64,000 nucleotides of DNA from Candidatus Omnitrophota bacterium (GTDB lineage Bacteria; Omnitrophota; Gorgyraeia; Zapsychrales; Fredricksoniimonadaceae), in contig JADFXX010000002.1 of NCBI GenBank assembly GCA_015233335.1, forward strand, positions 64,891-128,890, written 5' to 3'. Of this stretch, positions 29,365 to 47,955 are shown in pieces. The number at the start of each line of letters is the position of its first letter. Position 1 is the stretch's first letter. The notes below the pieces were generated by a model that saw only the letters and a program-made list of their open reading frames with translations, had not been told where the DNA came from and did not search any database. The position numbers and the translations under genes were made by a program.

Positions 29365-29415
29365 AACAGGCTCCTTTTTTTACTTTATTTATAATAAAAC
29401 TGCATTCCTGCGTTA

Positions 29416-29443: not shown

Positions 29444-29462
29444 ATATTAGAGAAAATTTCTT

Positions 29463-30704: not shown

Positions 30705-32446
30705 CCCTCCACTGTTGTCACACCCAATACCTCGTCAACACTGACCATCCCGGTCTCCACTTTCTTCATGCCCGACTCAAAAAGTGTGTCCATGCCATTG
30801 CGTCTTGCCGCATCCCTGATCTCGCCATAGTTGGCGCTTTGTGTAATCAAATTACGGATCTCATCATTGATCGCCATGACCTCAGACACAACCACACGGC
30901 CTTTAAAACCGGTATGGTTGCACTCATCACAGCCTTTGGCGCGATAGATCAAATCGCTTTTGATCTTGTAACCTCCCACCACTTGGCCCTGAGCTTCATA
31001 AGGTTCTTTGCATTTAGGGCAAAGCTTCCGGGCCAAGCGTTGAGCAACCACCATCACCAAAGACGGTGTTATCATATAGTGAGGCACTCCAATATCGATC
31101 AAACGCGATAGCGCAGAAGGGGCATCATTGGTATGCAGTGTAGATAAAACAAGATGGCCCGTCAAAGCCGCCCGTATACAAATCTGGGCAGTTTCAAGAT
31201 CGCGAACTTCACCCACCATGATAATGTCCGGATCCTGACGTAAAAAAGCGCGCAGGGCCGTCGCAAAAGTGAGTCCAATATCCGTACGCACAGCAACCTG
31301 ATTGACCCCATCAAGTTTAAATTCTACCGGATCTTCACAGGTCATGACGTTGAGGCTCGGATCAAACACCTCATTCAAACAGGAATATAAAGTCGTTGAT
31401 TTACCGCTTCCGGTCGGACCTGTGACAAAAAATAAACCAAACGAACTGTCAAGGGCCTTGCGGATGGCCTCAAGCTGTTTGGGCTCATAACCCAAATTGG
31501 CCAACTCTAGCTTGACCGAGCCCTTATCCAAAAGACGCATGACGACCTTTTCTCCCCACACCGTCGGTATAGTGGACACACGTAAATCCACCACACGGTC
31601 CTCCAGTTTGGCAGAAATCGCTCCATCCTGCGGTAGACGCTTTTCCGCGATATCCATTTTAGAAAGAATCTTGATGCGAGAAACAATAGGAAGATGCAAA
31701 TGCGCCGCCGGAGGAGGTATTTGATATAAAACCCCGTCAATACGGTAACGGATCTCCAGCCTGTCTTTAAAAGGCTCTATATGGATATCACTGGCCCTCT
31801 CATCAATGGCCTGACGGATAACCAGATCAACAAGCTTGACAACAGGCGCTTCCTCGGCCTTGGCAATTAAGCGGTCTATGCTTAATTCCGAATCAGCAGT
31901 CACTCCTTTGTCTTCCACTTTAGGACCAAGGTTCCCGTCTGCATAACTTTTCTGCAAGGCCTGGTCCAAAAGTGTGCCGCCTTCCCTTTCTGCGGCGTTA
32001 AGACCTGTCACATAAAACTCAGTAATCGCCTTAAGCAGATCTGTTTTTGTGGCAAGGATCAGGTTTAAATCGCATCCCGTTAAAATTTTTAAATTATCAA
32101 AAACAAAAAAATCCAGAGGATCAAATATGGCGCAAGTTAAGGAGTGATGATTTTTAGATAGCGGAAGGACTAAATTCTTTTTGGCAAATTCATAATCTAC
32201 TAATTTTTCTAAGCTCTGGTCTGTTTTAGGATTAAGGAGGCCTGAGGCGTAGGACGCATAAGGGATCGACAGCTGGGAACCTAAAGCAATGGAAAAATCC
32301 GCTTCAGTGACCATTCCTTTTTCAATTAAAATTTCACCGATACGTTTTCCCTTTTGCTGCTTTTGAAGATTGATCGCTTCTTGTAATTGACTCTCACTAA
32401 TGAGTCCCTGCTTGATTAAAATTTCACCGATTCTGACACGTGCCAT
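30701..32446 (-). CDS. pilB: Type IV pilus assembly / T2SS ATPase (GspE/PilB family) with N-terminal MshEN-like domain
   Basis: 581 aa. Walker A GPTGSGKST, Asp/His boxes and a tetracysteine CPKC...CDEC. N-terminal tandem RIGEILIxxG...Q motifs. Confidence 0.92.
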   Translation of the reverse strand: MARVRIGEILIKQGLISESQLQEAINLQKQQKGKRIGEILIEKGMVTEADFSIALGSQLSIPYASYASGLLNPKTDQSLEKLVDYEFAKKNLVLPLSKNHHSLTCAIFDPLDFFVFDNLKILTGCDLNLILATKTDLLKAITEFYVTGLNAAEREGGTLLDQALQKSYADGNLGPKVEDKGVTADSELSIDRLIAKAEEAPVVKLVDLVIRQAIDERASDIHIEPFKDRLEIRYRIDGVLYQIPPPAAHLHLPIVSRIKILSKMDIAEKRLPQDGAISAKLEDRVVDLRVSTIPTVWGEKVVMRLLDKGSVKLELANLGYEPKQLEAIRKALDSSFGLFFVTGPTGSGKSTTLYSCLNEVFDPSLNVMTCEDPVEFKLDGVNQVAVRTDIGLTFATALRAFLRQDPDIIMVGEVRDLETAQICIRAALTGHLVLSTLHTNDAPSALSRLIDIGVPHYMITPSLVMVVAQRLARKLCPKCKEPYEAQGQVVGGYKIKSDLIYRAKGCDECNHTGFKGRVVVSEVMAINDEIRNLITQSANYGEIRDAARRNGMDTLFESGMKKVETGMVSVDEVLGVTTVEG

Positions 32447-32449
32447 AGG

Positions 32450-34123
32450 TCAATGTCTTTTCAATTCATAAGAATTCAAGGTTTGATCCACCTCTTCAAT
32501 GCGCCCGACGGTGTCTGTCATGCTAAGGGGAGCCTCTTGCTTTAAATTGTCCGCTTTCAGAATATCCTGATTGTGGTCACTGAGAATATGAGGAGTAATA
32601 AAAATAATCAGTTCTCGTTCATTTTTTGTGCTGTTCTTATTACGGAACGCCGTCCCGACTATAGGCAAATCTCCTAAAAAAGGGACCTTTGTTATGGTCT
32701 TGGTATCCTGAACCCGCAATAATCCTCCCATCACCATGGTCTGGCCATCTTTAAGCTTCAATATGGAAAGAGAACCGCGCTCCTCCGGGTCATAGATCTG
32801 TGTTCCAGCCCCGGTCGTGGCTCCGGTTGCCGGCGGCTGGACCAAAGACAAGCCTACATCAACGATCTTAGGATAAACAGCCATAGTTATTTCCTCTGTC
32901 GAAAGATTGGCCTGAGGAGTAACGGTTAAAACCACGCCTGTTTGATACCGTTCCGGGGCATAGGTTGTTGTAGTTATGCCATTTGCTGTCGATGAAGTCA
33001 CATCAACGCTGATGGCCTGTTGAGTAGCTATTTCAATTTGCGCCGTCTCGTTATTTAAAGTCAAAAGTCTTGGACGCGCCAAATTGTGTGTATCGCTTTG
33101 GGTCCTTAAAAATTGTAGTTGCGCTGTCATCCCCGCAGCGCTGATAACGCCAGGGAGATACTCAGCAGTCGCTGTGCTGGAACCGCCGGAACTGCTGGAG
33201 CTACTACTACTGCTAGAGCTAGAAGAACTTGATGAGGGTAAATCTAATGGATTGGCCTTACTTAAAGGGTAAAGGGTATTTTTCGAGGCGCCCGTAAAAG
33301 TCAAAGGTGTACTGCCAAACTTTATCCCCAACTGATCCGCGGTAGTCTTAGAAATATCAAGCATTTCCACCTCAATAAGAATTTGCGGCACAGGCACATC
33401 AAGCTTGGCGATTGTATTTTCAATGATCTCAAATTGCTGGGGCACATCCGTTATGATCAAACTGTTCGTACGGGGATCCTCCATCAGTTTGCCCTGTTTG
33501 GATAAAGAATCTGTGACCGCATCCTCCAGCCCCCCCGAAGATGGCGTTGAAGCACCTCCGGTCGATGAACCCGACGCTGAACCTGCTGAGCCTGACGAAC
33601 CTGATGATCCTGACGAGCCTGATGATCCTGACGAACCCGAACCCGATGATGATTGGGTCGCAATAGAAAAAGTGGACTTTAATTTTGAGGAAGAAACAGT
33701 CGCGTATTTAAGCTGATAAACTCTTGTGATTCTATAAACCTCTCCCTCTTTAGTTTTAGCCTTGACCACAAAAACATTGCTGTCCTTCTGCATTTCATAA
33801 GTCAGGTCGTTAGCATCCAATATCTCTTTTAGAGCTTCATTGACCGGAACACTGTTAAGAAAAAGAGTGACCTTGCGGTCCGCAACGTCCGAGGACGCTA
33901 GAAAATTCAAGGACGCTTGCTTGGAAAAAACTTTTAAGACGTTGGTCAATGAAGCTTCCTTAAAATCCATGGAAATAAGCTTGTCAGAATATTCAGGAGA
34001 AATAAAATGATCTTCAATGTTCTGGCCGGACCAAGCCCCCATGTTCACTAAGAAAAAAAGGGCCCCACAAATCCCTATTGTCCTCAAAAGTTTAAACATG
34101 CTTGTCTCCATTAATCGTCGCAT
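32450..34123 (-). CDS. pilQ: Secretin (PilQ/GspD family) with Ser/Gly low-complexity linkers
   Basis: 557 aa. C-terminal secretin signature VPFLGDLPIVGTAFRNK...RELIIFITPHIL and N0/STN-like ISMDFKEASLTNVLKVF. The likely start is the ATG at 34099 (GGAGA SD), which gives signal peptide MFKLLRTIGICGALFF. Confidence 0.88.
   Translation of the reverse strand: MRRLMETSMFKLLRTIGICGALFFLVNMGAWSGQNIEDHFISPEYSDKLISMDFKEASLTNVLKVFSKQASLNFLASSDVADRKVTLFLNSVPVNEALKEILDANDLTYEMQKDSNVFVVKAKTKEGEVYRITRVYQLKYATVSSSKLKSTFSIATQSSSGSGSSGSSGSSGSSGSSGSAGSASGSSTGGASTPSSGGLEDAVTDSLSKQGKLMEDPRTNSLIITDVPQQFEIIENTIAKLDVPVPQILIEVEMLDISKTTADQLGIKFGSTPLTFTGASKNTLYPLSKANPLDLPSSSSSSSSSSSSSSSSGGSSTATAEYLPGVISAAGMTAQLQFLRTQSDTHNLARPRLLTLNNETAQIEIATQQAISVDVTSSTANGITTTTYAPERYQTGVVLTVTPQANLSTEEITMAVYPKIVDVGLSLVQPPATGATTGAGTQIYDPEERGSLSILKLKDGQTMVMGGLLRVQDTKTITKVPFLGDLPIVGTAFRNKNSTKNERELIIFITPHILSDHNQDILKADNLKQEAPLSMTDTVGRIEEVDQTLNSYELKRH
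33176..33235 (-). repeat. Poly-serine tract (16 Ser, then GGSS) inside the secretin gene
   Basis: Encodes PSSSSSSSSSSSSSSSSGGSS using mixed AGC/AGT/TCT/TCA codons. Confidence 0.85.
33530..33652 (-). repeat. In-frame (Ser-Ser-Gly)n-type tandem repeat inside the secretin gene
   Basis: Encodes SSSGSGSSGSSGSSGSSGSSGSAGSASGSSTGGASTPSSGG. The plus-strand DNA shows reiterated cctga(c/t)ga(a/g)cc units. Confidence 0.85.
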
Positions 34124-34142
34124 ATGAACCGGGCTTAAAAAT

Positions 34143-34568
34143 CTACTCTGTTTTTAAGAAAAACTTTTTCCCCTTAAAAAGGAGTCCGACTCCTTCTTTA
34201 GAAACGGAAACAACTCGGGCCCCCTTGATCGTCCCTTGCAGAGGGACTAGCTGATCATCAATAATCGCCTGGCCCATTTCTTCCCCCACAACGACACCCT
34301 GCAGCTTGAGATCAGGAAGGGTTATAATCTCCTCTTCCGGTTGAACCGCAACGGGTTCGGCTACCGGCTGGGGCACCTCTTGAGACGGCTCAGGCGGTTT
34401 TACAACCGGTTGAGCAGGTGCCGGGGGCTTGGGCAAATCAGCCACAAACGGATTTTTTAGCTGATCCAATGCCGTATTAAACTCCCCATCGCTTAAAGCG
34501 GTCTCTTGGGCCTTTATAGAAACTATACCTACAAAAAATAAAATAATCAAAAAAAATATTTTTTTCAT
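34143..34568 (-). CDS. PilP-like pilus assembly protein (secreted, Pro-rich linker)
   Basis: 141 aa. Signal peptide, a PKPPAPAQPVVKPPEP linker, and a C-terminal beta domain LKLQGVVVGE..AIIDDQLV..G..I.GARVVSV resembling PilP/GspC-HR. Overlaps pilO-like by 4 nt. Confidence 0.6.
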   Translation of the reverse strand: MKKIFFLIILFFVGIVSIKAQETALSDGEFNTALDQLKNPFVADLPKPPAPAQPVVKPPEPSQEVPQPVAEPVAVQPEEEIITLPDLKLQGVVVGEEMGQAIIDDQLVPLQGTIKGARVVSVSKEGVGLLFKGKKFFLKTE

Positions 34569-35122
34569 GAATGAAGATGAGCCACGCTAATTTTCATCGA
34601 AAAGCTTAATTCTGTATCCCCTTGGGCCGAACATGAATTTACCCTAAAAAGATAGGGGGATTTTTCTATATCTCTTATAAAAAGGACCAACGCTTTATAG
34701 TCGGGCGCTGTACCCTTAAAATCGACATTAATAACATCATACAACCCCATGTCCTGGGTGTCTGTCGGAGAAAAAGAACTGATAGACAAATTATGCGCTG
34801 TCGCATAAACCGTGATTTGGGTAATAATTTTATCTTCATCAATACCTTTGGGAAAAGAAGCCTTAAAATCCTCCAGCTCCTTCGTTATCTTCTGCTGGGC
34901 GGTAATAGCATCAAGCTTCTGTTGCATTTGAGAGATCCGGGAGCGTAAACCCTGCTCCTTGGAATGGTTATCGTTAAACATAATTCCCGCAACAACCAGT
35001 GCGACGACAATCACGGCTGACTTTAAAACGACATGAAGATTCTCAGTCAGGGCCTGGATAATCTGATCAGTGTCCATGCTTTTAAGATCAGCCGGTAAAT
35101 TTGACTTCTTAGGATCGCTCAT
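34565..35122 (-). CDS. PilO-like bitopic pilus assembly protein
   Basis: 185 aa. Single TM helix (AVIVVALVVAGIMF), a coiled-coil segment, then a small alpha/beta domain. Sits between pilM/N and pilP-like. Confidence 0.6.
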   Translation of the reverse strand: MSDPKKSNLPADLKSMDTDQIIQALTENLHVVLKSAVIVVALVVAGIMFNDNHSKEQGLRSRISQMQQKLDAITAQQKITKELEDFKASFPKGIDEDKIITQITVYATAHNLSISSFSPTDTQDMGLYDVINVDFKGTAPDYKALVLFIRDIEKSPYLFRVNSCSAQGDTELSFSMKISVAHLHS

Positions 35123-35126
35123 AATC

Positions 35127-36656
35127 TCATGAACCGTTGATAATAAATGAAGTTACGTCCCGATCGTTAACCTTATTGCGCGTTAAAGGGCCAAGCTTCA
35201 CATTGCTAAAAATCCCTGACAACACTTTGTCACTCTTAAAGCTCGACACTATGCCGTAGACTGCTGTTATTTGCTCACTGATATCATCCTTAAAAACGTA
35301 CCCTTCTAGGTCGATGGTCGCATGAATGCTTTTTAAATCACTTCCTTCATATTTTATTTCTACATTCCTCAACCATGCGCCTTGCGGCAAAAGGGAAGCG
35401 GCTTTGAGCAAAATAAGAGCCGCATCACTTTTGACTGGGATACTCTTATAATTTGAAAGTTTATCCGTATAGTCCTGGGTTTGAGATTGTATGGTATCCA
35501 CGGGAGTCCCCAAAAATATCCCCTGCTGGTGAGCCAATCCATCATATTTCTTCTGCATATTGTTTAATTCTGTCTGAAAGTAAAAAAATACGCCGACTAA
35601 GAAAATCGCACTAACGAACAATGTCAATAAAATGTCCTTATATTCGTTAACCACTAAATCGAAAATCTTCTTAATCTCCGAATCAGATGATTTTTCTGCA
35701 AGAAAATTAAAGGCGGAAAGAGAATGAGCAGGCACATCAACCCCCGCACCAAGGGCATAAACGGCATCAATATGATTGATCTGATCTGTCCCGACTGTAG
35801 TGACTAAAGGAGAAAATTTCTTGATCTTCACCTTAAACTCCCCTGCCATCGTATCCAATAATTCCTGTAAATCAAAGAAAGATGAAACAATCATCTGCTC
35901 CATTCTTTCCCCGTTAAATTGCCTGGCATAAAAATCAAAAGAAATCCCAACTTCGTTGAGGATCTTCGCATTTAAAGATTCAATGCTATCGTTCGTCTGC
36001 CCGGAAGCCCCGGAGGTTGTGATCTGAAACTCACGGACAAACTGAGGGATCCCTCGATCTACAAAACAAATGTAACTTGAGCTCTTGTCCAAATATAAAA
36101 ATACAAAACGATCGGTCAGCTTGATCTCTTTCTTATACAACAAAGCACGGACCAGGCTCACCTGGCAGGGACCGCAGAAAAGGACCTTCACATTCTGCTG
36201 CTGAAAAATTCTTTCATAGCGCGCCAAAACCTCTTTGCGAACGGCAAAAAAGATGACCCGGATACGCTTGACTTGATTTTCCGTGAAAGGAAAGGTAGAA
36301 GTAACAAAAGAAATGTCCTGAATTTCAAAAGGCACATATTTTTTAGCTTCAAATTTGATCACGTTTTGAAGTTCACGGGGATTAACCCAGGGAATGCTAA
36401 AAGAACGTAAAATGATGTCCTTCATGGGCAAAGAAACACAAAAATCAGAACTTTTTATCCCATAATCCTTTAATATTTTTTGAAGAAGTGCGGTTATTTG
36501 TATTTCTTCGGTCAGACCGGAACTAAATGGGGAATTGGTATCGCCTTTTGCGCCTAATAACGCAGAAACAACTTGAACAGACGTATTCTTTTCTAACTCA
36601 ATGATTGTTAACTTTTCTTCACCACAATAAAAACCTATTTTTTTTGACTGGGACAT
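35127..36656 (-). CDS. pilM: Fused PilM (actin-like ATPase fold) / PilN-like assembly protein
   Basis: 509 aa. A cytoplasmic PilM-like region of about 330 aa, TM helix ILLTLFVSAIFLVGVFFYF, then a periplasmic region of about 150 aa. First gene after the 103-nt promoter gap. Confidence 0.7.
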   Translation of the reverse strand: MSQSKKIGFYCGEEKLTIIELEKNTSVQVVSALLGAKGDTNSPFSSGLTEEIQITALLQKILKDYGIKSSDFCVSLPMKDIILRSFSIPWVNPRELQNVIKFEAKKYVPFEIQDISFVTSTFPFTENQVKRIRVIFFAVRKEVLARYERIFQQQNVKVLFCGPCQVSLVRALLYKKEIKLTDRFVFLYLDKSSSYICFVDRGIPQFVREFQITTSGASGQTNDSIESLNAKILNEVGISFDFYARQFNGERMEQMIVSSFFDLQELLDTMAGEFKVKIKKFSPLVTTVGTDQINHIDAVYALGAGVDVPAHSLSAFNFLAEKSSDSEIKKIFDLVVNEYKDILLTLFVSAIFLVGVFFYFQTELNNMQKKYDGLAHQQGIFLGTPVDTIQSQTQDYTDKLSNYKSIPVKSDAALILLKAASLLPQGAWLRNVEIKYEGSDLKSIHATIDLEGYVFKDDISEQITAVYGIVSSFKSDKVLSGIFSNVKLGPLTRNKVNDRDVTSFIINGS

Positions 36657-36715: not shown

Positions 36716-36744
36716 ATTAGACAACACAGATGGAGGATTGTCAA
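36716..36744 (-). promoter_or_regulatory. Candidate sigma70 promoter for pilM/N-O-P-Q-B-C
   Basis: The minus strand reads cgTTGACAatcctccatctgtgttgTCTAATaaaaa, with a 17-nt spacer. It lies in the only sizeable gap (36657-36759) of this region. Confidence 0.45.
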
Positions 36745-36759: not shown

Positions 36760-37095
36760 TTACTGGAAAGAATCGTAGGTTGAGGTCATCGTATAAAGAT
36801 GACCTGCAGGAACGGCACCGCCTTGGGCCACCGCTGCCTGATAGGTCCGAAACTGCTCGGTTTGACTGATAGCGGCAGCCTGCAAACCAGCCGTAGAAGA
36901 ATATCCGTTCCAAAACATACCATCAGCCAGCTCTTGGGAGGAAATTTCATCGATCTGCTGCTGTGCAAAATTGATCTCATTCATGCTTTGGGACAAAATA
37001 CTGGCACTGATGATCATAATGATAATAGAAGTCATTAGTACAGTAAAAAGCACCACACCGGATTCATTATTGAGTTTCTTTAATGGTCGGAACAT
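36760..37095 (-). CDS. PilX_N/GspK-like pseudopilin lacking Glu5
   Basis: 111 aa. N-terminus KKLNNESG|VVLFTVLMTSIIIMIISASIL resembles a prepilin hydrophobic helix but has Thr at +5. Confidence 0.5.
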   Translation of the reverse strand: MFRPLKKLNNESGVVLFTVLMTSIIIMIISASILSQSMNEINFAQQQIDEISSQELADGMFWNGYSSTAGLQAAAISQTEQFRTYQAAVAQGGAVPAGHLYTMTSTYDSFQ

Positions 37096-37109
37096 AGTGC
37101 TCCTTTAGC

Positions 37110-37331
37110 TCAATTCTGGTAACTGCCACAGCGCGGACAGCAACACGGCGTCTTTTTAAAATAATCAAAATACAACAGTCCGCAAAAAGCACATTGCCTG
37201 AAGGATTCCCGGCTGCTTGGAGTCCCCTCCTGGCCTCTGTTCATAGTATAAAACATCCAGGCCCCAATCACAAGCCCTAGACTTAAAGATATTCCAAATG
37301 CCACAATGACATTAAAATCCCAAATAATCAT
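37110..37331 (-). CDS. Small membrane protein with C-terminal zinc-ribbon-like CxxC...CPRC
   Basis: 73 aa. One TM helix (VIVAFGISLSLGLVIGAWMF), then CAFC-x13-CCCPRC. Gaps to neighbours are 4 and 14 nt. Confidence 0.5.
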   Translation of the reverse strand: MIIWDFNVIVAFGISLSLGLVIGAWMFYTMNRGQEGTPSSRESFRQCAFCGLLYFDYFKKTPCCCPRCGSYQN

Positions 37332-37335
37332 AACA

Positions 37336-37608
37336 TTATGATTTTGAAGGGTTTCTTAACTCAATCCAGCGGTTAAAATAAGAGGCCTCAAAGTGATCAA
37401 ATAAAACCTGATCCAAAGTCTTTAAATCTTCTCCCACACTGGAGATACCATTGTTGCTGCCTTGGGATAGGGGAAGTGCCCCCTCATAAATAAATGTCGC
37501 AGCACTTCTCGCTTGAGGCACAGGAAACCCAACCCAAATGACACTTAATAACCCAAAGTGTACCAATATTACGGCTATAAATATCCTAACCCCTAATTTT
37601 ACATTCAT
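37336..37608 (-). CDS. Small N-terminally anchored membrane protein (possible TonB/TolA-anchor analogue without a C-terminal domain)
   Basis: 90 aa. TM helix IFIAVILVHFGLLSVIWVGF. Lies 6 nt after exbD, in the position where tonB/tolA normally sits. Confidence 0.45.
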   Translation of the reverse strand: MNVKLGVRIFIAVILVHFGLLSVIWVGFPVPQARSAATFIYEGALPLSQGSNNGISSVGEDLKTLDQVLFDHFEASYFNRWIELRNPSKS

Positions 37609-37614
37609 AATAAA

Positions 37615-38013
37615 TTAAAGAATCGTGCTGACATGGACTGTTGCGTTCGAAATTCCCTTACATAAATCAAGAATATCCGCTAATCGTCCCATAGAAGAAT
37701 GGCGGTCCGCTTTGACCATTATTGCATGGGACCTCAAATCCCTACGGGCTAAAAAACGCCTGAGTTCGTTTAAGGTCACGACCTTGCCGTCAATATAAAG
37801 AACATTCTCACTGGTAATAACAATTTCGACCTGCTGTCCAGATGGGCTCGTGTCTTCTCTAAAAGTTGGAAAATTGATCGCAACGCCGGAAGGGACAGCA
37901 AAAACCGTTGTTGACATAACTAAAACCACGATCATTAAAATAAAATTGATAAAGCTGATCGCTAATAGCGGATGGATAATATTTTTCTTAAGCTCAAAAC
38001 GTTCAAGACTCAT
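37615..38013 (-). CDS. exbD: Biopolymer transport protein ExbD/TolR
   Basis: 132 aa. N-terminal TM helix and a periplasmic domain V.I....LYIDGK.V.L.EL...L typical of ExbD/TolR. Overlaps exbB by 4 nt. Confidence 0.85.
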   Translation of the reverse strand: MSLERFELKKNIIHPLLAISFINFILMIVVLVMSTTVFAVPSGVAINFPTFREDTSPSGQQVEIVITSENVLYIDGKVVTLNELRRFLARRDLRSHAIMVKADRHSSMGRLADILDLCKGISNATVHVSTIL

Positions 38014-38654
38014 GAAGAGCCCCTCCCCTGCAACAGTTCTGCTGACTCACCGATCGTTTGCTCAAAAGCCGATACTATATCGTTTATCCGGCTGGCTGTA
38101 AAACTGTAGATGGCATAGCCAATGATCCCTACTGAAAGGCCCGCCGAAGTTGTTAATAAAGCCTGCCAAATGCCCGAAGACATATCCCCCAGGCTCAAAG
38201 GATTGAGAGCATTGGAACGCATCAATACCGCATGAAATACCACACATAAAGCATTGCTCGTACCCAACAATCCCAGTAACACAGCCGCATTGGGAATAAA
38301 AGCCAATAAGTTCAAACGTCTCTTCAAAGCGTGGATCTCAAAGCCGGCAGCCTGTTCCATAGAGACTTTGATGAGATCTGCAGTAGCTCCATATTTCATA
38401 AGCCCCGCCTTACAAATACGGCCCAGAGCATCAGAATTTTCTTCACAGGCAATCAGAGCATCTTTCATGCGATTTTCCTGTATGGCTTTAAAAAAAACCG
38501 GTTTTAATTTTTTCATATTCTGTTCAACCGCACTAAACAACATCAACTTTTCAATACCTACCGCAATCGTTGCTACCGACAGTAAAAGTATCGGCCACAT
38601 CATGGGACCGCCCTTAAGCAATATCCCCCAAGCATTAATAAAAGAAATGGTCAT
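38010..38654 (-). CDS. exbB: MotA/TolQ/ExbB proton channel protein
   Basis: About 214 aa. Three TM helices and the LLGLLGT motif. The ATG at 38654 forms an ATGA overlap with the TPR gene stop; the track ORF extends to 38672. Confidence 0.85.
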   Translation of the reverse strand: MTISFINAWGILLKGGPMMWPILLLSVATIAVGIEKLMLFSAVEQNMKKLKPVFFKAIQENRMKDALIACEENSDALGRICKAGLMKYGATADLIKVSMEQAAGFEIHALKRRLNLLAFIPNAAVLLGLLGTSNALCVVFHAVLMRSNALNPLSLGDMSSGIWQALLTTSAGLSVGIIGYAIYSFTASRINDIVSAFEQTIGESAELLQGRGSS

Positions 38655-41101
38655 AATTTCCTCATCTTCCAAGCGTTGTTTTTAATCCAGTCCAGCCTTT
38701 CCTGCGCATAAGCGGCCTCTGGTGTTTTTAACTGGATGATTTTTTGGTAAGTGACCTTAGAACCCTGCCAGTCTTGACCTTCCTCATAAATTTTGGCCAC
38801 ACGCAAATAAGCTTTAACCGCCCATACTTGTTCGTTGGTATACAAAACGGGTATTTTCAAATATTCCGCTATGGCATCCTCTGTACGGCTCATCAACTCT
38901 AAGGTATCAGCCAGATTAAACTGCAGCTGGGCACGATTGACGGAACCCTTAGTCATCGAAAGAGCTCTTTGATAAACATCCATTTCTTTCTCATAGTTCT
39001 GCGCATTACGGTAAAGCTGCCCCAGCTTTAAATAAGCCTCACCGGCATATTCAGGACTTGTCTTAATGATGCTCTCATAGGCCGCAATGGCCATATGGGG
39101 ATCCAATTCCTTCGATAAAACCCCGGCGATGGCCAGCCTTGTTTTTGCTGTAAGATGTTCATCTTTGGATGAAATCGCTTTATACTCCTCAAGGGCTTTT
39201 TCCAAAAGCCCCTGGATCTCATAAGCCTGACCTAATTCATAATGGATCTGGTCAATCTGCGGAGAATCGGGGAATTCTTCAATAATAGATCTATAAAAAT
39301 CGGTAGCGGCATCCACATCAGCATTTTTCAAATAAAATTGGGCCAGCCACAATAGAGCCTCAAGCGCCACATCGGTTTTAGGATATTTGTACACAACCAG
39401 CTTGAAGCGCTTAACCGCCTCTTTATACTGCCCGAGTTGGGACTGACACTTGGCGATCCCGATGTCGGCATTTTGGGCAATTTTGGTTTCATTCGGATAA
39501 AGCCTGAGGATCTTTTGAAAGACCTTGAGGGCCTCTTCCGGCTCCTTAAGATTTAAACGAGATAAAGCTAGGATATAGCTAGCCTCAGGCGTAAACTCGC
39601 TTGGATGTGTCAATTTTTTAAGAAAACGATCCATAGTCAAAGCACTCTGCTTCCAATCATTTTTCTTAAAACTGATGATCCCCCTATAGTAATCCATGTC
39701 CTGCAAATACTGACTATCGGGAAAATCAGTCTCCAAGTCCTTAAAGTTTCTGAGGCTGGCATCAATTTTACCAAGCTTGAGAAAAACAATGGCCTGACGA
39801 TATAGGACATAGTCCATCATGCCGTTATTAGAAAAATCTTTTTCCACTTTTTGATACAACTGTGCGGCGTTTGACCAATCACCGCTTTCCTGATAAACAT
39901 CTGCCATTTGAATAAGGGCGCTCACACGAATATCCGCCTGCGTACTCTTATCATAAACTTCCTGAAAATGGCTGACGGATTCCTGCAAGTGGCCCATCTT
40001 AAGCTCACACCATCCCATGCCAAAGCGCACCTTTTGAAAAATTTCTGGATCTGTTTGATTTAATAAATGACGGTAATCCCCCAGAGCTTCATCATATCGT
40101 CTTAATAGATAATAAACATTCGCCCGTCCTAAATAGCCCTGCACCCAGTGCCCGTTTTGCGGATAACTTTTAATAAAATCCGAAAAAAGAGTTAACGCAT
40201 TAGCATAAAAACCACGTTCAAAAGCAAGATTGGCACGGGCCAGGACCACCTCCTGGAGGGATAACCCGCGAGTTTTACAAAACTCTTCCGCTGTTTTTAA
40301 TATATCGCCTGATTCATCAAAACTTTTTAACTTAATGTAACTCCACCCTTCCCCCATATAAGCCGAAAGTTTTAAAGCATCCTCACAGGAAGAATCCAGG
40401 ATTTTTTGATAAAAGCTGACTGCTGAATCGAATTGTTCCAAATAATAAAGACTTTCCGCGGAGTAAAAATTAATTTCACATAAATGGGAAGATTTTGGAA
40501 AACGATCTGCTAAAAGTTTAAAATCTGATAAAGCTTCCTTCAAATGACCGGAATTATAATCACATTCGGCAATCTTTAAAGCCGCGTCTTCACTAAATTG
40601 ATTGGACGGAAACTGCTCCGTCAAACGGGAAAAAACGGCTTTCGCTTCAGTGAATCTCTTCTCTTCAAAAAAAGACCATCCTAAAGAATAATAGGCTTGA
40701 GGCACAAAAGAAGAATCCGGAAAATCATGGATCACGGCATTATAATCATTTTGGGCTTCTCTGAGGCGGTTCTGCTTTAAGTAGGTCTCTGCCCGCCAAA
40801 AAAGGACTTCATCCTTTTTATCCGGCTTTTGGCTTAACTCTTCAAACAAGTCCAAGGCTTGAGGATATAGTCCACGCAGAAAATCACACTGACCCAGCAA
40901 TAATTTGGCTGTATCAAGCTTAAGGCTTTGGGGATAATTTTGTAAAAATTCCTCAAGATAACGCGAGGCCACATCGCTAAAGCCGTCATTAAAAGCCTGC
41001 TCGGCCGCAGACAAAAGCTCCGTTTCCGTAGTCTGAGCAAACGCAATGTGACAAGAACATATTAAAACAACCAACAAAAAAACTCTGGCAAATGGCTTCA
41101 T
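38651..41101 (-). CDS. Large secreted tetratricopeptide-repeat protein
   Basis: 816 aa. Signal peptide ending AFA|Q, then TPR-like A..Y..G..Y...g.Y..A...F repeats along the whole length, in the style of YbgF/CpoB. Confidence 0.8.
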   Translation of the reverse strand: MKPFARVFLLVVLICSCHIAFAQTTETELLSAAEQAFNDGFSDVASRYLEEFLQNYPQSLKLDTAKLLLGQCDFLRGLYPQALDLFEELSQKPDKKDEVLFWRAETYLKQNRLREAQNDYNAVIHDFPDSSFVPQAYYSLGWSFFEEKRFTEAKAVFSRLTEQFPSNQFSEDAALKIAECDYNSGHLKEALSDFKLLADRFPKSSHLCEINFYSAESLYYLEQFDSAVSFYQKILDSSCEDALKLSAYMGEGWSYIKLKSFDESGDILKTAEEFCKTRGLSLQEVVLARANLAFERGFYANALTLFSDFIKSYPQNGHWVQGYLGRANVYYLLRRYDEALGDYRHLLNQTDPEIFQKVRFGMGWCELKMGHLQESVSHFQEVYDKSTQADIRVSALIQMADVYQESGDWSNAAQLYQKVEKDFSNNGMMDYVLYRQAIVFLKLGKIDASLRNFKDLETDFPDSQYLQDMDYYRGIISFKKNDWKQSALTMDRFLKKLTHPSEFTPEASYILALSRLNLKEPEEALKVFQKILRLYPNETKIAQNADIGIAKCQSQLGQYKEAVKRFKLVVYKYPKTDVALEALLWLAQFYLKNADVDAATDFYRSIIEEFPDSPQIDQIHYELGQAYEIQGLLEKALEEYKAISSKDEHLTAKTRLAIAGVLSKELDPHMAIAAYESIIKTSPEYAGEAYLKLGQLYRNAQNYEKEMDVYQRALSMTKGSVNRAQLQFNLADTLELMSRTEDAIAEYLKIPVLYTNEQVWAVKAYLRVAKIYEEGQDWQGSKVTYQKIIQLKTPEAAYAQERLDWIKNNAWKMRKL

Positions 41102-41138
41102 AACTTCCTTTACTGTTAATTAAAAAGAATCTTGAAAT

Positions 41139-41167
41139 ATTATACCAAGGTTATCTGACTTTGTTTA
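41139..41167 (-). promoter_or_regulatory. Candidate extended -10 promoter for the TPR-exbBD operon
   Basis: The minus strand reads cTAAACAaagtcagataaccTTGgTATAATatttc (TGnTATAAT, 17-nt spacer). The -35 falls in the last codons of uvrA. AAAGGAAG SD precedes the ATG at 41101. Confidence 0.45.
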
Positions 41168-43976
41168 AGAAATGTTTCAGGTATTGACCGGTGTACGAGG
41201 TGGGATGACGCACCAGGTCCTGAGGCGATCCTGCAAAAACAACCTCTCCTCCTTTGTCACCTCCGTCGGGCCCAAGATCAATGATATAATCCGCAGTCTT
41301 GACCACATCCAAATTGTGCTCGATAACGAGCACCGTATTACCTCTGTCGACCAAACGCTGCAGGACTCCCAATAGTTTATCCACATCGGCAAAATGCAAG
41401 CCGGTTGTAGGTTCATCCAAAATATAAAAAGTACGCCCCGTGGCCGCTTTGCACAATTCACTGGCCAATTTGACCCTCTGCGCTTCACCGCCGGACAAGG
41501 TCGTGGCCGCCTGTCCCAGACGAATATATCCTAAACCCACGTCATTTAAAGTTCGCAATATATTCTGGACTCTTGGGATATTTTCAAATATTTCAAGGGC
41601 TTGAGACACTGACAGGTTGAGCACATCCGCAATGTTCTTGCCTTTAAATTGCACCTCCAAGGTCTGGTCCGTAAAACGCCGCCCGTGGCATATGGCGCAC
41701 TCAACATAGACATCCGGCAAAAAATGCATTTCAATTTTCTTGATCCCATCCCCTCCACAGGATTCGCAACGCCCGCCTTTAACGTTAAAACTGAAACGCC
41801 CCGGCTTATATCCCCGTATTTTGGATTCAGGCAACAGTGCGAATAGATCGCGAATGGGGGCAAAAACACCCGTATAGGTGGCCGGATTAGAGCGCGGCGT
41901 ACGGCCAATAGGTGATTGGTCTACCACAATGACTTTATCAATATGCTGTATGCCTTCGATTTTCTTATACCTGCCCGGTTTCTCCCTGCTGCCATAAATT
42001 TTATGAACCAAGGCTTTATATAAAATGTCCGTAACAAGGGTCGATTTACCCGAACCCGAAACACCCGTCACACAAATAAATGCCCCTAAGGGAAGGCTGA
42101 TGTTAATATCTTTTAAATTATGCTCTGCGGCACCGATGATTTTCAGAAAATCAGTTGCAATAATGTCTCTGTGTTTATCCGGACGTTTGATTTGATACTC
42201 TCCCGTGAGATACCGTCCGGTCAAAGAATCCGGACATTGGGTCAACCCCTTGACTCCTCCGGCATAAATCACACGTCCGCCCTGCTCGCCGGCGCCGGGA
42301 CCTAGATCGATCACATAATCTGCTCTTCGAATGGTATCTTCATCATGCTCAACAACGATCAGGGTATTGCCTAGATCTCGCAGCGCATGAAGGGTAGATA
42401 AAAGACGGTCATTGTCCTTTTGATGAAGTCCGATGCTGGGTTCGTCTAATACATAAATAACACCCACCAACCCGGAACCGACCTGAGTCGCCAGGCGTAT
42501 GCGTTCTGCCTCACCGCCGGAAAGGCTGCTGCTGCGTCTGTCTAACTGCAAGTACTCAAGGCCCACATTAATACAAAAATCCAACCGGCGGTTAATCTCT
42601 TTGATAATCTCTTCACTGATGATTTTCTTATCTTGAGGAAGCTTTAGCTGACTGAAAAATTGTTTGGCCTCTTTGATAGAAAACGCTGTCAGCTGGGTAA
42701 TATCCCGATCGGCGACTTTGACTGCTAGTGATTCCTTTTTAAGACGCCGTCCCTGACATTCAGGACAAGGGGACTCATACATAAAGGAAGCGATCTCTTC
42801 TTTAAGCCAATCGCTGTCCGTTTCCCTAAATAATCGCTGCAGATATTTGACCACCCCTTCAAAAGTCCTTCCCCAAATTTCAACCTCCGAGCCATAAAAA
42901 ACCATATGTTTGAATTTCTTATCGAGGTCTTTAAACGGCTTATGCGGGTCTATCCTATACATGCGGGCGATTTCCCTCAATACGGCTCGGTAATACATCA
43001 TGTACCCACGCTGGCCGCGCTTCCAGGGAGCGATGGCGGATATCCACGGCTTAGCATCGTCCGGCACCAAAGCCTGCGGATCAATTTCCATCTTGGTCCC
43101 CAGCCCATTGCAATCGGAACAGGCGCCATATGGCAAATTAAAAGAAAAAATACGCGGCTCAATCTCACTTAAAGAAATGCCGCAGTCCCCACAGGCATAT
43201 TTTTCACTGAAGATCTGCTGAGGTTTTACATTATTAAAATCAAGAATCATCCCCCCTTCGCCTGTCTTTAATGCTGTTTCAACAGAGTCGGACAAACGCT
43301 TACGCAGCCCCTCGCGGATAGTCAGACGGTCAACCACCACTTCAATGTGGTGGATTTTATATTTATCGAGTTTAAAAGAATCCCCCGTTTCATAGATTTT
43401 CCCGTCAATACGCATACGGGCGAAACCGGACTGAGCGACCTGCTTTCCAATATTACGATACTCGCCTTTACGTCCGCGTACCAAAGGACTTAAAATATTA
43501 ATTTGAGTCCCCAGGGGTAGCTCTAAAACAATATCTACGATCTGCTGAGCACTTTGCATTTCAATTTTCTTGCCACAGGAGGGACAATGGGGAGTTCCGA
43601 CACGTGCAAACAAAAGACGCAAATAATCATAAATTTCTGTCTGGGTTGCAACGGTAGAGCGCGGATTGCGGCTGACTGTTTTTTGTTCGATTGAAATCGT
43701 CGGGGAAAGCCCTTCGATATGGTCCACCGCCGGCTTTTGCAGCTGATCTAAAAACTGGCGGGCATAGGCCGAAAGACTTTCCACGTAACGACGCTGGCCT
43801 TCGGCATAAATGGTATCAAAAGCCAAAGACGACTTGCCGCATCCGCTGACACCTGTGATCACCACAAATTGATTGCGGGGAATGATCAAATCAATGTTTT
43901 TAAGATTATGTTCACGGGCCCCGCGGATCATGATAGAGCTCATCGGGGACACCCCTTGATCTTCATCTATTTTCAT
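41151..43976 (-). CDS. uvrA: Excinuclease ABC subunit A
   Basis: 941 aa. IRGAREHNLKNI, two ABC modules (GVSGCGKSS, GVSGSGKST, LSGGEAQR) and zinc-finger cysteines. An alternative ATG start lies at 43943. Confidence 0.96.
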   Translation of the reverse strand: MKIDEDQGVSPMSSIMIRGAREHNLKNIDLIIPRNQFVVITGVSGCGKSSLAFDTIYAEGQRRYVESLSAYARQFLDQLQKPAVDHIEGLSPTISIEQKTVSRNPRSTVATQTEIYDYLRLLFARVGTPHCPSCGKKIEMQSAQQIVDIVLELPLGTQINILSPLVRGRKGEYRNIGKQVAQSGFARMRIDGKIYETGDSFKLDKYKIHHIEVVVDRLTIREGLRKRLSDSVETALKTGEGGMILDFNNVKPQQIFSEKYACGDCGISLSEIEPRIFSFNLPYGACSDCNGLGTKMEIDPQALVPDDAKPWISAIAPWKRGQRGYMMYYRAVLREIARMYRIDPHKPFKDLDKKFKHMVFYGSEVEIWGRTFEGVVKYLQRLFRETDSDWLKEEIASFMYESPCPECQGRRLKKESLAVKVADRDITQLTAFSIKEAKQFFSQLKLPQDKKIISEEIIKEINRRLDFCINVGLEYLQLDRRSSSLSGGEAERIRLATQVGSGLVGVIYVLDEPSIGLHQKDNDRLLSTLHALRDLGNTLIVVEHDEDTIRRADYVIDLGPGAGEQGGRVIYAGGVKGLTQCPDSLTGRYLTGEYQIKRPDKHRDIIATDFLKIIGAAEHNLKDINISLPLGAFICVTGVSGSGKSTLVTDILYKALVHKIYGSREKPGRYKKIEGIQHIDKVIVVDQSPIGRTPRSNPATYTGVFAPIRDLFALLPESKIRGYKPGRFSFNVKGGRCESCGGDGIKKIEMHFLPDVYVECAICHGRRFTDQTLEVQFKGKNIADVLNLSVSQALEIFENIPRVQNILRTLNDVGLGYIRLGQAATTLSGGEAQRVKLASELCKAATGRTFYILDEPTTGLHFADVDKLLGVLQRLVDRGNTVLVIEHNLDVVKTADYIIDLGPDGGDKGGEVVFAGSPQDLVRHPTSYTGQYLKHFLNKVR

Positions 43977-43993: not shown

Positions 43994-45586
43994 TTACTTA
44001 ATACTGGCATTGCTTTTTTGAAGCATCCATTTATGCCAGCACTTAATGACGCCCCATTTAACCAGAAGATAACCGAATTGCCCCATCAAGCCCGGAAAAT
44101 ATGAAAACTCTAAGAATCTTAAATGATTAAATCCTCTTTTAAATAAATAAATAGATCTGACAATAAATAATATCCCCGGAAATTCATGCTGCTTTTCTCC
44201 ATATGGTTTGGCGTGCTTTAGAAAAAAATCAAAAATAGCTCTTGGCGGTTTAAATATGTCCATTATAAAAACCGCAATATTCGCCAAGGAAGGTTTAACC
44301 AGTGTATAATTTTTATCATTTATGGCGGGATGGCTGATATTCATCTGCTTAAAATTTCTTTCCAGCTCGGTGTTAGGCATGACTCTTAAGGAAAAAATAT
44401 TTAAAGTAAAAGGGCGAGGCATATGGTAAATAAATTCTAACGTATCTATAACATCTTGCCGCGTTTCAATAGGATTATCCAGAATAATATCGTAAGTCGG
44501 CGGAATCATATAGGGAACGAATTCATTGATAGTCACAATCGCCTGTCTTGTCATTTCTGCTGTTGCAGGACGCTTGTAAAATTTGAGGATTCGATCGCTT
44601 CCGCTTTGAATACCCATCTTTATACGGTACATGCCGGCTTTGACTAGCAATTTTAACTTTTCTTTTTTAACTAAACTCGGCAAAGCCCCGACAACACTAA
44701 AACTTATATTAATCTCTTTTTTCCATTTTTCCGAAAATTCTTCTAAAACGGACATAGGAAGACCAATAAAACTGTCATCGTGAAATGTCACTGAAGAAAT
44801 AAAGGGGTATTTCCTTTGCACCTCTTTGATCTCACTAATTATACGATTGACTGATGTATAACGGACTTTTCGATAGTTTCCGTCATTATCAATAAACTTT
44901 GAATTACTGCAATACGCACAATTATACGGGCATCCGATAGACCAGACCGTATGGTAAGAAACACCGTTCAATTTTAGATATTCACGAGCATCCAATAGGA
45001 CAAAACCAATATTTCTTTTATAAATAAATTCGAAATCACCAGCATGGACCGGCAACGGTAACTGATCCATATCTTCTTGGGTCTGAAGGGAAGAAAAATC
45101 ATTCTTAATAATCCTTCCCTCCTGATTAAACCAAAAATTCTTTGTCCTGGTATAATCAGCCTCCTGTTGATATAAGCTGAAAAACTCTTTAAATGCCAGC
45201 TCTCCTTCCCCTACACAAATAGCATCCACATAATTAATAGCATCATCGGGATTAACAATAGGATGGATCCCGCCCCAAACTAAATACACATAAGGATTGA
45301 TTGCTTTAATTCTGTTAACGATCACTTTCGTTAAATCGGCATATGGAGTCATTGAAGAAAAACAAACCAAATCAGCTGTTGCCAAATGACGAGAAATGCG
45401 GTCTAAGTCATCTTGCGCGATATCTGAAGTACATCGACCTAGTAATAAAGATGCGATCGACATATGGTTTGTCGGAACAATATAATAGACTCCGGTGTCT
45501 GGATGAATAGACCGGGCCAAGGAGCACATTTTCCTAAAACCACAAGCTATAATGCCTCCATCAATTGACACAAAATTCATTTTCAT
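43994..45586 (-). CDS. B12-binding-domain radical SAM enzyme (class B type), function unknown
   Basis: 530 aa. N-terminal Rossmann-like B12-binding-type domain ending CVGEGE. Radical SAM cluster motif GCPYNCAYC. Confidence 0.78.
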   Translation of the reverse strand: MKMNFVSIDGGIIACGFRKMCSLARSIHPDTGVYYIVPTNHMSIASLLLGRCTSDIAQDDLDRISRHLATADLVCFSSMTPYADLTKVIVNRIKAINPYVYLVWGGIHPIVNPDDAINYVDAICVGEGELAFKEFFSLYQQEADYTRTKNFWFNQEGRIIKNDFSSLQTQEDMDQLPLPVHAGDFEFIYKRNIGFVLLDAREYLKLNGVSYHTVWSIGCPYNCAYCSNSKFIDNDGNYRKVRYTSVNRIISEIKEVQRKYPFISSVTFHDDSFIGLPMSVLEEFSEKWKKEINISFSVVGALPSLVKKEKLKLLVKAGMYRIKMGIQSGSDRILKFYKRPATAEMTRQAIVTINEFVPYMIPPTYDIILDNPIETRQDVIDTLEFIYHMPRPFTLNIFSLRVMPNTELERNFKQMNISHPAINDKNYTLVKPSLANIAVFIMDIFKPPRAIFDFFLKHAKPYGEKQHEFPGILFIVRSIYLFKRGFNHLRFLEFSYFPGLMGQFGYLLVKWGVIKCWHKWMLQKSNASIK

Positions 45587-45597
45587 AAAATCGATTG

Positions 45598-47046: not shown

Positions 47047-47103
47047 ATTGACACTATGGGTTGATTATCATGGATGTCCTACAGGGACAGTGATTGGCCA
47101 ACA

Positions 47104-47955
47104 TCAGGGATCAATTTTGACCTTATGCCATTGATCCCCCACTTTACGCATAGCCCAAAAACCACAGTAGCTGGAAATATCCGTCCCAAAAAACTCCGAG
47201 ACCGCCAGACACACGCCCGGATGATAAGTCTGCTTCGTCTTTGGGTCGACCACCATATTGACTTCTTTGTGTTCTTCGGCATAGTCCCTGTCGATATTTA
47301 CAAGTGAGCCATCAAAATCATCACCGGCTATGATGCCACCTTCGCCTATAAGCTTTGCGGCATTATATAAATCTTTTTTTATTCCTGAGTAACTGTGGTC
47401 CCCATCAATATAAACCATATTAAAAATTCCCCTCCTCAATAAAGGCAACACACGTTCACTGTATCCCTTGAGAGGACAAATCACATCTGAATGATGGGAT
47501 GTCTGAATGTTATGTAAGAATAGCTTGAAAACACTGCCCCTTTTTAAAGCCTTGTTCATAATAATCGTTGCTGAATTTACTTTTTCCTGCTGTTCATCAA
47601 TGTAGGGTTCCCATGGATCAACACATAAAACCATCCCTTTTTTCCCGGCGAATTTGATAGTATCCGCCCATAGCACCGCAGAATCACCTGCCCAGGACCC
47701 AATTTCTAGTAAATAAAAATATTCCTTGTCCTTAATCTCCTTTTGGAGAAGCCGTCTCATATACGGCTTTCTTTCTTCCCATGTTTGACCAGCCAATGCC
47801 ACGGTTCCAAAATAAGGCTTTTGGCTCATTAAGCAATATATGTACCGGACACGATCTAATTCAGAGACTATTTCTGCCAACCAAGGCGATCTGACGACCC
47901 AAGCAAACAGCCCAGGAAAATTCTTTTTAAAAAAAACAACAGTTTTCTTATCCAT
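47104..47955 (-). CDS. Class I SAM-dependent methyltransferase (Methyltransf_24/CmcI-like)
   Basis: 283 aa. LLEIGSWAGDSAVLWA (motif I) and VYIDGDHSYSGIKKDL are typical of this O-/C-methyltransferase group. Confidence 0.65.
   Translation of the reverse strand: MDKKTVVFFKKNFPGLFAWVVRSPWLAEIVSELDRVRYIYCLMSQKPYFGTVALAGQTWEERKPYMRRLLQKEIKDKEYFYLLEIGSWAGDSAVLWADTIKFAGKKGMVLCVDPWEPYIDEQQEKVNSATIIMNKALKRGSVFKLFLHNIQTSHHSDVICPLKGYSERVLPLLRRGIFNMVYIDGDHSYSGIKKDLYNAAKLIGEGGIIAGDDFDGSLVNIDRDYAEEHKEVNMVVDPKTKQTYHPGVCLAVSEFFGTDISSYCGFWAMRKVGDQWHKVKIDP

Follow-up and report, generated by a model that had tools for sequence, protein, structure and literature searches.

A Ton-derived module that appears to have lost the TonB C-terminal domain and lacks both membrane carboxylates is maintained next to a type IV filament locus in Omnitrophota

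The window analyzed here is a 64,000-nucleotide stretch of a contig from a Candidatus Omnitrophota bacterium, in which six co-directional genes at 36760-41101 of the minus strand are flanked by uvrA (41151-43976) on one side and by a type IV filament locus on the other. We found that these six genes (unit 1), which encode a tetratricopeptide repeat (TPR) protein, ExbB- and ExbD-like proteins, and three small proteins that we call p90, p73, and p111, descend from a real Ton system of the composition TPR-ExbB-ExbD-TonB-p73 that became established beside the filament locus in this branch of the Omnitrophota. It then appears to have lost the TonB C-terminal domain and, in the lineage of the window, has also lost both membrane carboxylates, with selection kept throughout. 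With a confidence that falls somewhat short of even, we read the present-day unit 1 as an accessory of the type IV filament machine that resembles PocA-PocB-TonB3 of Pseudomonas aeruginosa and lacks canonical proton-driven TonB energizing. An earlier reading of the sequence (the first-pass annotation) had described the same six open reading frames (ORFs), and we find them on the minus strand exactly as it described:

38651-41101, minus strand: TPR protein, 816 aa (ORF and Pfam)
38010-38654, minus strand: ExbB-like protein, 214 aa counted from its ATG, which overlaps the TPR stop as ATGA
37615-38013, minus strand: ExbD-like protein, 132 aa, with a 4-nt overlap with the ExbB-like gene
37336-37608, minus strand: p90, 90 aa, 6 nt after the ExbD-like gene
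37110-37331, minus strand: p73, 73 aa, 4 nt after p90
36760-37095, minus strand: p111, 111 aa, 14 nt after p73 (NCBI tag HQL14_01500)

The ExbB-like protein matched PF01618 (MotA_ExbB; 61.8 bits, cut-off 22.9), with TolQ as its best-scoring model, and the ExbD-like protein matched PF02472 (ExbD; 52.4 bits, cut-off 25.4); an exact-sequence look-up of the latter returned no record. When the ExbB-like protein was aligned to TolQ (8odt_A), the Thr ring of transmembrane helices TM2 and TM3 (TolQ T145/T178, ExbB T148/T181) was found to be kept, as it is across the related loci, and a Gln was found at the TM3 carboxylate position (TolQ E173, ExbB E176). A single-sequence PDB search with the window ExbD gave noise only, and a clade profile was required; aligned to 6tyi_Y, this profile, which also matches 7ajq_F, places Asn23, a residue invariant in 14 orthologues, opposite Escherichia coli ExbD Asp25. 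The essential transmembrane Asp (ExbD D25, TolR D23, MotB D32) is therefore Asn in the window protein. In E. coli, 18 of the 19 ExbD Asp25 substitutions are inactive and only D25E keeps 5-10% of the activity; D25N has no activity and is unresponsive to the proton gradient but still assembles with ExbB, and the Asp cannot be relocated within the helix (10.1101/2022.09.26.509584). In E. coli ExbB, non-protonatable substitutions of transmembrane residues that could respond to the proton motive force have been reported to be active (10.1101/2022.09.26.509584). Since Asn replaces the ExbD Asp and Gln replaces the ExbB Glu, a canonical proton-driven stator is unlikely in this genome by analogy with E. 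coli, and the label of a proton-motive motor that the first-pass annotation had given to this pair does not hold up.

To place these residues in context, we compared about 55 related Omnitrophota loci (given L numbers here), drawn from 3 contexts of p111 homologues, 12 GTDB species representatives that a p73 profile retrieved, 39 metagenome loci reached through distant ExbDs, and 3 more p73 contexts; every relative comes from metagenomic data, and only the GTDB and NCBI records have a known taxonomy. A homologue search with ExbB listed close relatives only (at least 62% identity), and the wider lineages were reached by a representative search with ExbD and a metagenome scan seeded with distant Asn-type ExbDs. 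Across 50 loci, the ExbD and ExbB residue states covary, with at least two independent origins of the Asn/Gln pair, which is found in the window clade and L017-L029 and separately in L052/L053; most deeper-branching loci have Asp with Glu, and a few loci have Ala. The Asp position is occupied by Asn in 56 and by Ser, Gly, His, or Thr in 12 of the 150 best representatives from 1.84 billion proteins, and in a set of 182 related sequences Asn occurs in 76 and Ser, Gly, His, or Thr in 12. On a rough neighbor-joining tree, the Asp-less ExbDs form one large clade plus several separate changes, for a minimum of 7 changes.

The second component that departs from a standard Ton system is p90, which occupies the slot normally held by tonB or tolA, as the first-pass annotation had proposed, and which can now be read as a TonB without its C-terminal domain. 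It consists of an N-terminal membrane anchor, with His17 present in 15 of 16 aligned orthologues, and a periplasmic part of only about 60 residues; the protein carries the motif WVGF..P..R...F.YEG and a conserved C-terminal D.F.AS.FN.W..LR.PSK. A Pfam scan found no TonB_C domain (PF03544) in p90, its profile matched nothing meaningful in the PDB, and no Pfam family was assigned to the 90-, 73-, or 111-aa protein. Among the scanned ORFs of the 64-kb window, which leave a few small ORFs unscanned, we found no TonB_C domain, TonB-dependent receptor, TolB, Pal, PD40 or OmpA domain, PilT-type ATPase, or prepilin peptidase.

The proteins that fill the p90 slot in other loci form a graded series. At one end is L054, the only locus with a clear TonB_C domain, which sits in a 217-aa protein (10373-11026; 42.7 bits, cut-off 24.6) and is accompanied by the Asp/Glu pair and by a 512-aa protein resembling a TonB-dependent receptor barrel, encoded between the TPR gene and exbB (7576-9114; 23.5 bits, below the cut-off of 27). 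This locus has no filament locus or p111 within 9 kb downstream. The second state is seen in L051, where the 208-aa protein encoded beside filament genes ends in a divergent TonB_C-like stretch (BLASTP against L054, E 7e-6); L051 and L054 also have in common a DUF2582 winged-helix gene, which in L054 follows p73 (11589-11792). A larger group of loci encodes 130-160-aa proteins with the same His-bearing anchor, the His being invariant in the longer syntenic forms too, and without a C-terminal domain. The series ends with the window clade, in which 84-99 aa forms reduced to the anchor are combined with the ExbD Asp-to-Asn and ExbB Glu-to-Gln changes. Since profile-profile comparison with hhalign matches p90 to the long syntenic forms (probability 80%, E 1.4e-5) and graded orthologues occupy the identical gene position, p90 is best read, as far as sequence comparison can tell, as a TonB that lost its C-terminal domain. 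The 5' end of p90 differs in the window: in most relatives its ATG overlaps the exbD end by 20 nt (MSARFFK...), while in the window this ancestral ATG (37634-37632) meets a stop after 9 codons and the gene begins instead at 37608, in a frame that gives an altered N-terminus (MNVKLGVR...; window 37605-37634), which reflects either an indel or an assembly error.

These features bear on whether unit 1 could be an active proton-driven ExbB-ExbD stator that energizes or gates the secretin, or that replaces PilT by retracting the filament through the anchor or the TPR protein. The gene neighborhood is consistent with such a stator, and so is the lack of a PilT-type ATPase among the scanned window ORFs, on which our scan agrees with the first-pass annotation. 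The secretin also has an STN/N0 domain, and a contact between TonB3 and PilQ's N0 domain has been proposed for Pseudomonas (PMC5285504). However, the whole window clade carries Gln in place of the ExbB Glu and Asn at the ExbD Asp position, where the E. coli mutant data leave little room for change; the periplasmic part of the TonB remnant is probably too short to span the periplasm alone, and pilT may be located in another part of the genome (the contig is 198 kb long). We therefore regard an active stator as unlikely for the window; since the deeper-branching relatives keep Asp and Glu beside the same filament locus, this model could hold for them.

We next considered how widely the arrangement is kept. 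The common order is uvrA, TPR, ExbB, ExbD, TonB-like, p73, pilin-like, an optional helix-turn-helix gene, pilMN, pilO, pilP, secretin, pilB, pilC, and pilins. It was seen in 16 close loci and in 39 plus 3 more distant ones, with identities of 62-88% for uvrA, 27-80% for ExbD, and 23-62% for PilMN, and the gene order persists down to 62-72%, 27-33%, and 23-30%, respectively. The adjacency of unit 1 to pilMNOPQ recurs in about 35 loci, so that it is not unique to this genome. Rearrangements around unit 1 do occur. In the window, an insertion of about 8 kb (43994-51654) separates aspartate dehydrogenase from uvrA, which are adjacent in L003 and L056-L058; it contains genes for two B12-binding radical SAM enzymes, a methyltransferase, a TPR protein, a radical SAM/SPASM enzyme, and a GT2 glycosyltransferase, and looks like an inserted modification cluster. 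In L020 (7480-9250), an IS1595-type transposase gene and a P63C-domain gene lie between the TPR gene and exbB, and the remaining cluster is intact. In L034 (9900-11000), fragments of the pilin-like, helix-turn-helix, and pilMN genes follow p73 and pilB starts about 750 nt after p73, which represents either a deletion of pilMN through secretin or a misassembly.

Selection on the six genes was estimated from the ratio of non-synonymous to synonymous substitution rates (dN/dS) across 15 lineages, in which synonymous sites are near saturation and the values are approximate. All six genes of unit 1 gave dN/dS values of 0.10-0.25, with medians of 0.10 for ExbB, 0.17 for ExbD, 0.25 for p90, 0.18 for p73, and 0.22 for p111, compared to 0.22-0.29 for pilMN, pilO, and pilP. 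The small ORFs are therefore conserved under purifying selection, and none of the six frames is interrupted in the window or its relatives, save for frameshift-like breaks on some contigs (for example, in ExbB of L003). A Ton system that is pseudogenizing after the loss of its TonB-dependent receptor and has no current function would account for the stepwise loss of the receptor-like gene, the TonB C-terminal domain, and the carboxylates, and for the ancestral p90 start that now runs into a stop. However, the dN/dS values reject a pseudogene, the frames are mostly intact, and the database holds hundreds of relatives; given the purifying selection, a decaying relic is close to refuted, and we consider it very improbable.

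Gene spacing says little about which of these genes are transcribed together. The minus strand carries all 60 retained ORFs of at least 100 aa in the window as well as the 73- and 90-aa genes; the median intergenic gap is 1 nt, 46 of 59 junctions are at or below 20 nt, and GC skew is negative over the whole window (1-64000). Since nearly every junction is tight, we rejected operon inference from spacing alone and relied on two promoter-like motifs that lie on either side of the six genes:

41139-41167, minus strand: P1, candidate promoter of unit 1, the Ton-like unit (consensus scan)
36716-36744, minus strand: P2, sigma-70-type promoter-like element 5' of pilMN (conserved motif)

P1 has a -35-like TAAACA (41167-41162) inside the end of uvrA, a 17-nt spacer, and a TGgTATAAT whose extended -10 form, TTGGTATAAT, lies at 41148-41139, directly 3' of the uvrA stop (41151-41153). 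The first-pass annotation had named a candidate promoter at 41139-41147, and the scan does match there; a lone match means little, as the consensus scan of the window gave 24 matches against 14.8 +/- 3.6 expected, and what supports the call is that TTGnTATAAT recurs directly after the uvrA stop in 12 related loci. P2 is composed of TTGACA (36744-36739), 17 nt, and TCTAAT (36721-36716), and takes the form TTGACAA-N16-TCTAAT in the clade, in which TTGACAA and TTGTCTAATAAA are invariant and the flanks are variable. It is present in 23 loci, and in distant loci it lies 5' of an HTH_17 gene upstream of pilMN. This excisionase-like gene of 61-65 aa, found between the pilin-like gene and pilMN and 3' of P2 in L030, L033 (11527-11712), L039, L049-L052, and L056-L058 and lacking in the window clade, may be a regulator of the filament operon.

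The distances between genes are in line with these motifs. In the 41 loci in which both were detected, the gap between p73 and p111 is -47 to +70 nt (median about 10), while p111 is always set apart from pilMN by 55-530 nt or by the HTH_17 gene; in the window this gap is 103 nt. We found no convincing terminator inside the six-gene stretch, including between exbD and the small genes, where a terminator would have spoken against the operon proposed in the first-pass annotation. Terminator-like matches at 37277 and 37718 fall within coding sequence and are no commoner than in shuffled sequences, and we rejected them. The operon layout is thus supported by conserved promoter-like motifs that bracket TPR-exbB-exbD-p90-p73-p111, which places the pseudopilin-like p111 in the Ton-like unit. 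We read the region as two conserved transcription units, TPR-exbB-exbD-p90-p73-p111 and (HTH-)pilMN...pilins, with the promoter function of both motifs being a prediction from sequence.

The position of p111 as the last gene of unit 1 matters because the protein resembles a pseudopilin. Its N-terminus (..NNESG|VVLFTVLM..) has Thr at +5 and no Glu5, and a collection of 5.8 billion proteins contains 29 homologues, of which those with a named source are Omnitrophica or metagenomic. A single-chain AlphaFold2 model (predicted local distance difference test score, pLDDT, 78) consists of a helix at 6-66 packed on a three-strand sheet, and the highest-probability Foldseek matches are GspI-type pseudopilins (XcpV 9a1f_R, probability 0.93, TMq 0.57), all with E >0.3. 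The predicted fold of this protein is pilin-like, although these structural matches are not significant. For the PilX_N/GspK label of the first-pass annotation, the hidden Markov model (HMM) matches at the N-terminus are all below threshold (GspK E 0.012, ComGG E 0.034, and, in an orthologue, PilX_N E 0.0045). No N_methyl or TIGR02532 match was found for p111 or its 23 aligned homologues, and a Pfam search of 24 p111 homologues identified no pilin family. Points of likeness to the GspI/GspK-type and PilX-type proteins are the small size of p111 and a Gly followed by a hydrophobic N-terminal helix; p111 shares the predicted helix-plus-sheet fold with GspI, which normally has Glu5, and the lack of Glu5 with GspK, which is about three times larger. 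GspK-type pseudopilins are also without Glu5. Unlike all three, p111 reaches no HMM threshold and is encoded at the end of a Ton-like operon, away from the other pilin genes.

The remaining small protein, p73, is predicted to be a single-pass membrane protein with a C-terminal CxxC...CPxC four-Cys zinc ribbon, which we infer to be cytoplasmic. Its single-chain AlphaFold2 model (pLDDT 78) shows a helix at 6-35 and a small beta ribbon, and its PDB matches are generic zinc ribbons only. It belongs to an unnamed family of 715 proteins, none of which has a Pfam domain, which agrees with the first-pass statement that the protein has no nameable family. It is conserved in all loci, L054 included, and its gene is uncalled in L001-L004 (the four ENA/JGI loci inspected first) and called in L056-L058, an annotation gap for a family of more than 700 members. 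A near-invariant Asp5 (window 37317-37319) lies at the outer edge or start of the membrane helix and occurs in the Asp/Glu as well as the Asn/Gln lineages. The position of this residue recalls that of Glu5 in pilins, perhaps by coincidence.

The components are drawn from known families, and a link between Ton proteins and pili is already known from Pseudomonas, which offers the closest functional precedent. In P. aeruginosa, PocA-PocB-TonB3, which are homologues of ExbB, ExbD, and TonB, are needed for the assembly and localization of type IVa pili; pocB and tonB3 mutants have no pili, and pocA mutants have few, non-polar pili (PMC5285504). In Acinetobacter baumannii, loss of tonB2 reduces natural transformation about 100-fold (PMC8811193). 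Unit 1 resembles PocAB-TonB3 in combining ExbB, ExbD, and TonB homologues, and the Poc role lies in type IVa pili rather than nutrient uptake. In the window, the TonB of unit 1 is without a C-terminal domain and the carboxylates are gone, and no pseudopilin, TPR, or zinc-ribbon partner has been described for PocAB-TonB3, while unit 1 has all three. The Poc genes are not known to lie within the pilus locus.

Compared to TonB-ExbB-ExbD of E. coli (6tyi, 7ajq), unit 1 has the same Pfam families, a three-helix ExbB with its Thr ring, the ExbD periplasmic domain, the exbB-exbD-tonB gene order, and a TonB-type His-bearing anchor. It differs in the ExbD Asp25-to-Asn and ExbB Glu176-to-Gln changes, in the loss of the Pro-rich spacer and the C-terminal domain of TonB, in the lack of a TonB-dependent receptor nearby, and in the additional partners p73, the multi-TPR protein, and the pseudopilin. 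The short form of p90 recalls Anabaena SjdR, a TonB-like protein of exceptionally small size that was formerly named TonB1 and is described as functioning in septal peptidoglycan structuring (PMC8597729). Like p90 as read here, SjdR is a TonB-family protein too short to reach the outer membrane, and it acts outside siderophore transport according to the cited passages, which mention no pilus link (PMC8597729).

Under the reading that we favor, a Poc-like accessory of the filament machine, the complex would, by analogy with the E. coli mutants, no longer be a canonical proton-driven TonB energizer of outer-membrane receptors. The TonB anchor would be held together with p73 in an ExbB5-ExbD2-type assembly, from which the long, CpoB-like TPR protein would extend into the periplasm. 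Through the presumably co-expressed minor pseudopilin p111, the module may help to assemble, position, or prime the filament, in which case it would act as a scaffold, static or driven in a non-canonical way, rather than as a retraction motor. A functional link of unit 1 to the filament is plausible.

The TPR protein, on the other hand, also points toward the cell envelope. This 816-aa protein, whose gene heads unit 1 in every locus whose sequence reaches that far, is predicted to be periplasmic, with about nine TPR modules of the YbgF/CpoB type besides a signal peptide that ends in AFA|Q; it matches the Pfam families TPR_6, TPR_2, TPR_16, and YfiO and reaches 229.6 bits (cut-off 90.1) in 9 stretches against NCBIfam tol_pal_ybgF (TIGR02795). 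Unit 1 therefore resembles the Tol-Pal system in its YbgF/CpoB-type modules, in an ExbB that scores best against TolQ, and in a TolA/TonB-like anchor with a transmembrane His. It is unlike Tol-Pal in that the window has no TolB or Pal among its scanned ORFs, that the equivalent of TolR Asp23 is Asn, and that the TPR protein, compared to CpoB, has 816 aa and about nine modules and is encoded by the first gene rather than the last. In passing, a Zorya-type anti-phage system was considered and rejected, as PADLOC gave no match for ExbB, ExbD, p90, p73, or p111 and generic TPR matches only for the TPR protein.

Several observations weigh against a role of unit 1 in the filament machine. The block of aminotransferase, HPPK, panC, and aspartate dehydrogenase genes, together with uvrA, is equally syntenic across the same loci, so that conserved order by itself says little about whether the two are functionally linked. 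In L054, the Ton module is present and a filament locus is not, which indicates that the module is not intrinsically part of a pilus, and in the close relative L005 the filament locus and the P2 motif (L005:4151-4345) are kept beside the Ton module while p111 is missing. The whole window is one tightly packed strand, a CpoB-like TPR protein and a TolQ-best ExbB would, on sequence grounds, also fit a Tol-like envelope role, and the proposed loss of proton coupling is read from E. coli mutant data.

The Tol-like matches, the equally syntenic neighbors, L054, and the tight junctions favor an alternative in which unit 1 is a Tol/Ton-derived module for envelope maintenance or cell division that is independent of the filament, with the genes being neighbors by descent: the order would be inherited in small, slowly rearranging genomes, and p111 would just happen to precede the pilMN promoter. 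SjdR also shows that a role in peptidoglycan is known for a short TonB-like protein (PMC8597729). However, TolB and Pal are missing from the scanned ORFs, a pilin-fold gene lies inside unit 1 in the 41 loci where it was detected, among them most of those with a filament locus, and is absent from L054, the one locus that has none, and the join between units 1 and 2 is never broken even though rearrangements such as the 8-kb insertion and the L020 insertion sequence occur. We consider this alternative a real possibility, if on balance a doubtful one.

A stronger form of the filament reading, which we likewise hold to be possible but rather improbable, is that the Ton system has turned into a dedicated part of the filament, with a carboxylate-free ExbB-ExbD, a truncated TonB, and a zinc-ribbon subunit coupled to it via the pseudopilin and a periplasm-spanning TPR protein. 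If true, no earlier case of a natural 5:2 stator-type complex that works as a scaffold would precede it; it could be such a scaffold or, alternatively, one that uses a different ion path, such as one via the near-invariant Asp5 of p73, and it would give a mechanistic handle on the unexplained Poc-pilus link. The need for PocAB-TonB3 in the type IVa pili of P. aeruginosa has been unexplained since 2004-2013, and the locus described here ties together a Ton-derived module, a pilin-fold protein, and pilus genes, and offers testable partners in p73, the p90 C-terminal motif, and the TPR protein. A single transmembrane Asp is regarded as indispensable to all Ton, Tol, Mot, and Poc stators; a large clade under selection with a correlated loss of this Asp and of the ExbB carboxylate is a natural experiment on stators without a proton relay.

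Our findings also bear on the biology of the Omnitrophota, which are mostly uncultured and host dependent and in which type IVa pili have been proposed to mediate host attachment (PMC10066038). Surveys of the phylum discuss these pili and their neighborhood, and one of the two reports that they are co-located with unusual F-type ATPases (PMC10066038; 10.64898/2026.06.07.730766). Neither survey mentions an ExbBD/TonB-like module (PMC10066038; 10.64898/2026.06.07.730766), and our literature text searches, which were of limited coverage, returned nothing that describes this arrangement or ExbD clades that naturally lack the Asp.

The type IV filament unit next to unit 1 (unit 2), assigned with Pfam and NCBIfam, is composed of the following features:

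26768-36656, minus strand: type IV filament unit
35127-36656, minus strand: pilM/N fusion
34565-35122, minus strand: pilO
34143-34568, minus strand: pilP-like gene
32450-34123, minus strand: secretin, with an STN/N0 domain
30701-32446, minus strand: pilB
29463-30704, minus strand: pilC
28939-29364, 28398-28871, and 27864-28337, minus strand: three pilins
27439-27888 and 26768-27442, minus strand: two further N_methyl proteins

The ATPase, the platform protein, and the pilins all score between the models for type IVa pili and those for type II secretion systems, with PilB at 608 bits compared to 578 for GspE, and GspF at 359 bits compared to 299 for PilC. At its N-terminus, PilB carries an MshE-type cyclic-di-GMP-binding motif (NF053729; 60.7 bits, cut-off 38). 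Between its N-terminal domains, the secretin contains two long linkers of low complexity, rich in Ser/Gly and poly-Ser (about 33500-33620 and 33190-33260), at which gene callers split the protein in several related contigs. A gene for a papain-family cysteine protease (25996-26796) overlaps the end of the last N_methyl gene by 29 nt, and farther along, a 750-aa ORF (4553-6805) has no Pfam family at E <=1e-4 and faint methyltransferase matches only. The filament locus is flanked by uvrA upstream (41151-43976) and by recA-recX downstream (23465-24972), and the pilins of L056-L058 show weak ComP_DUS matches; a link of the filament locus to DNA uptake is conceivable.

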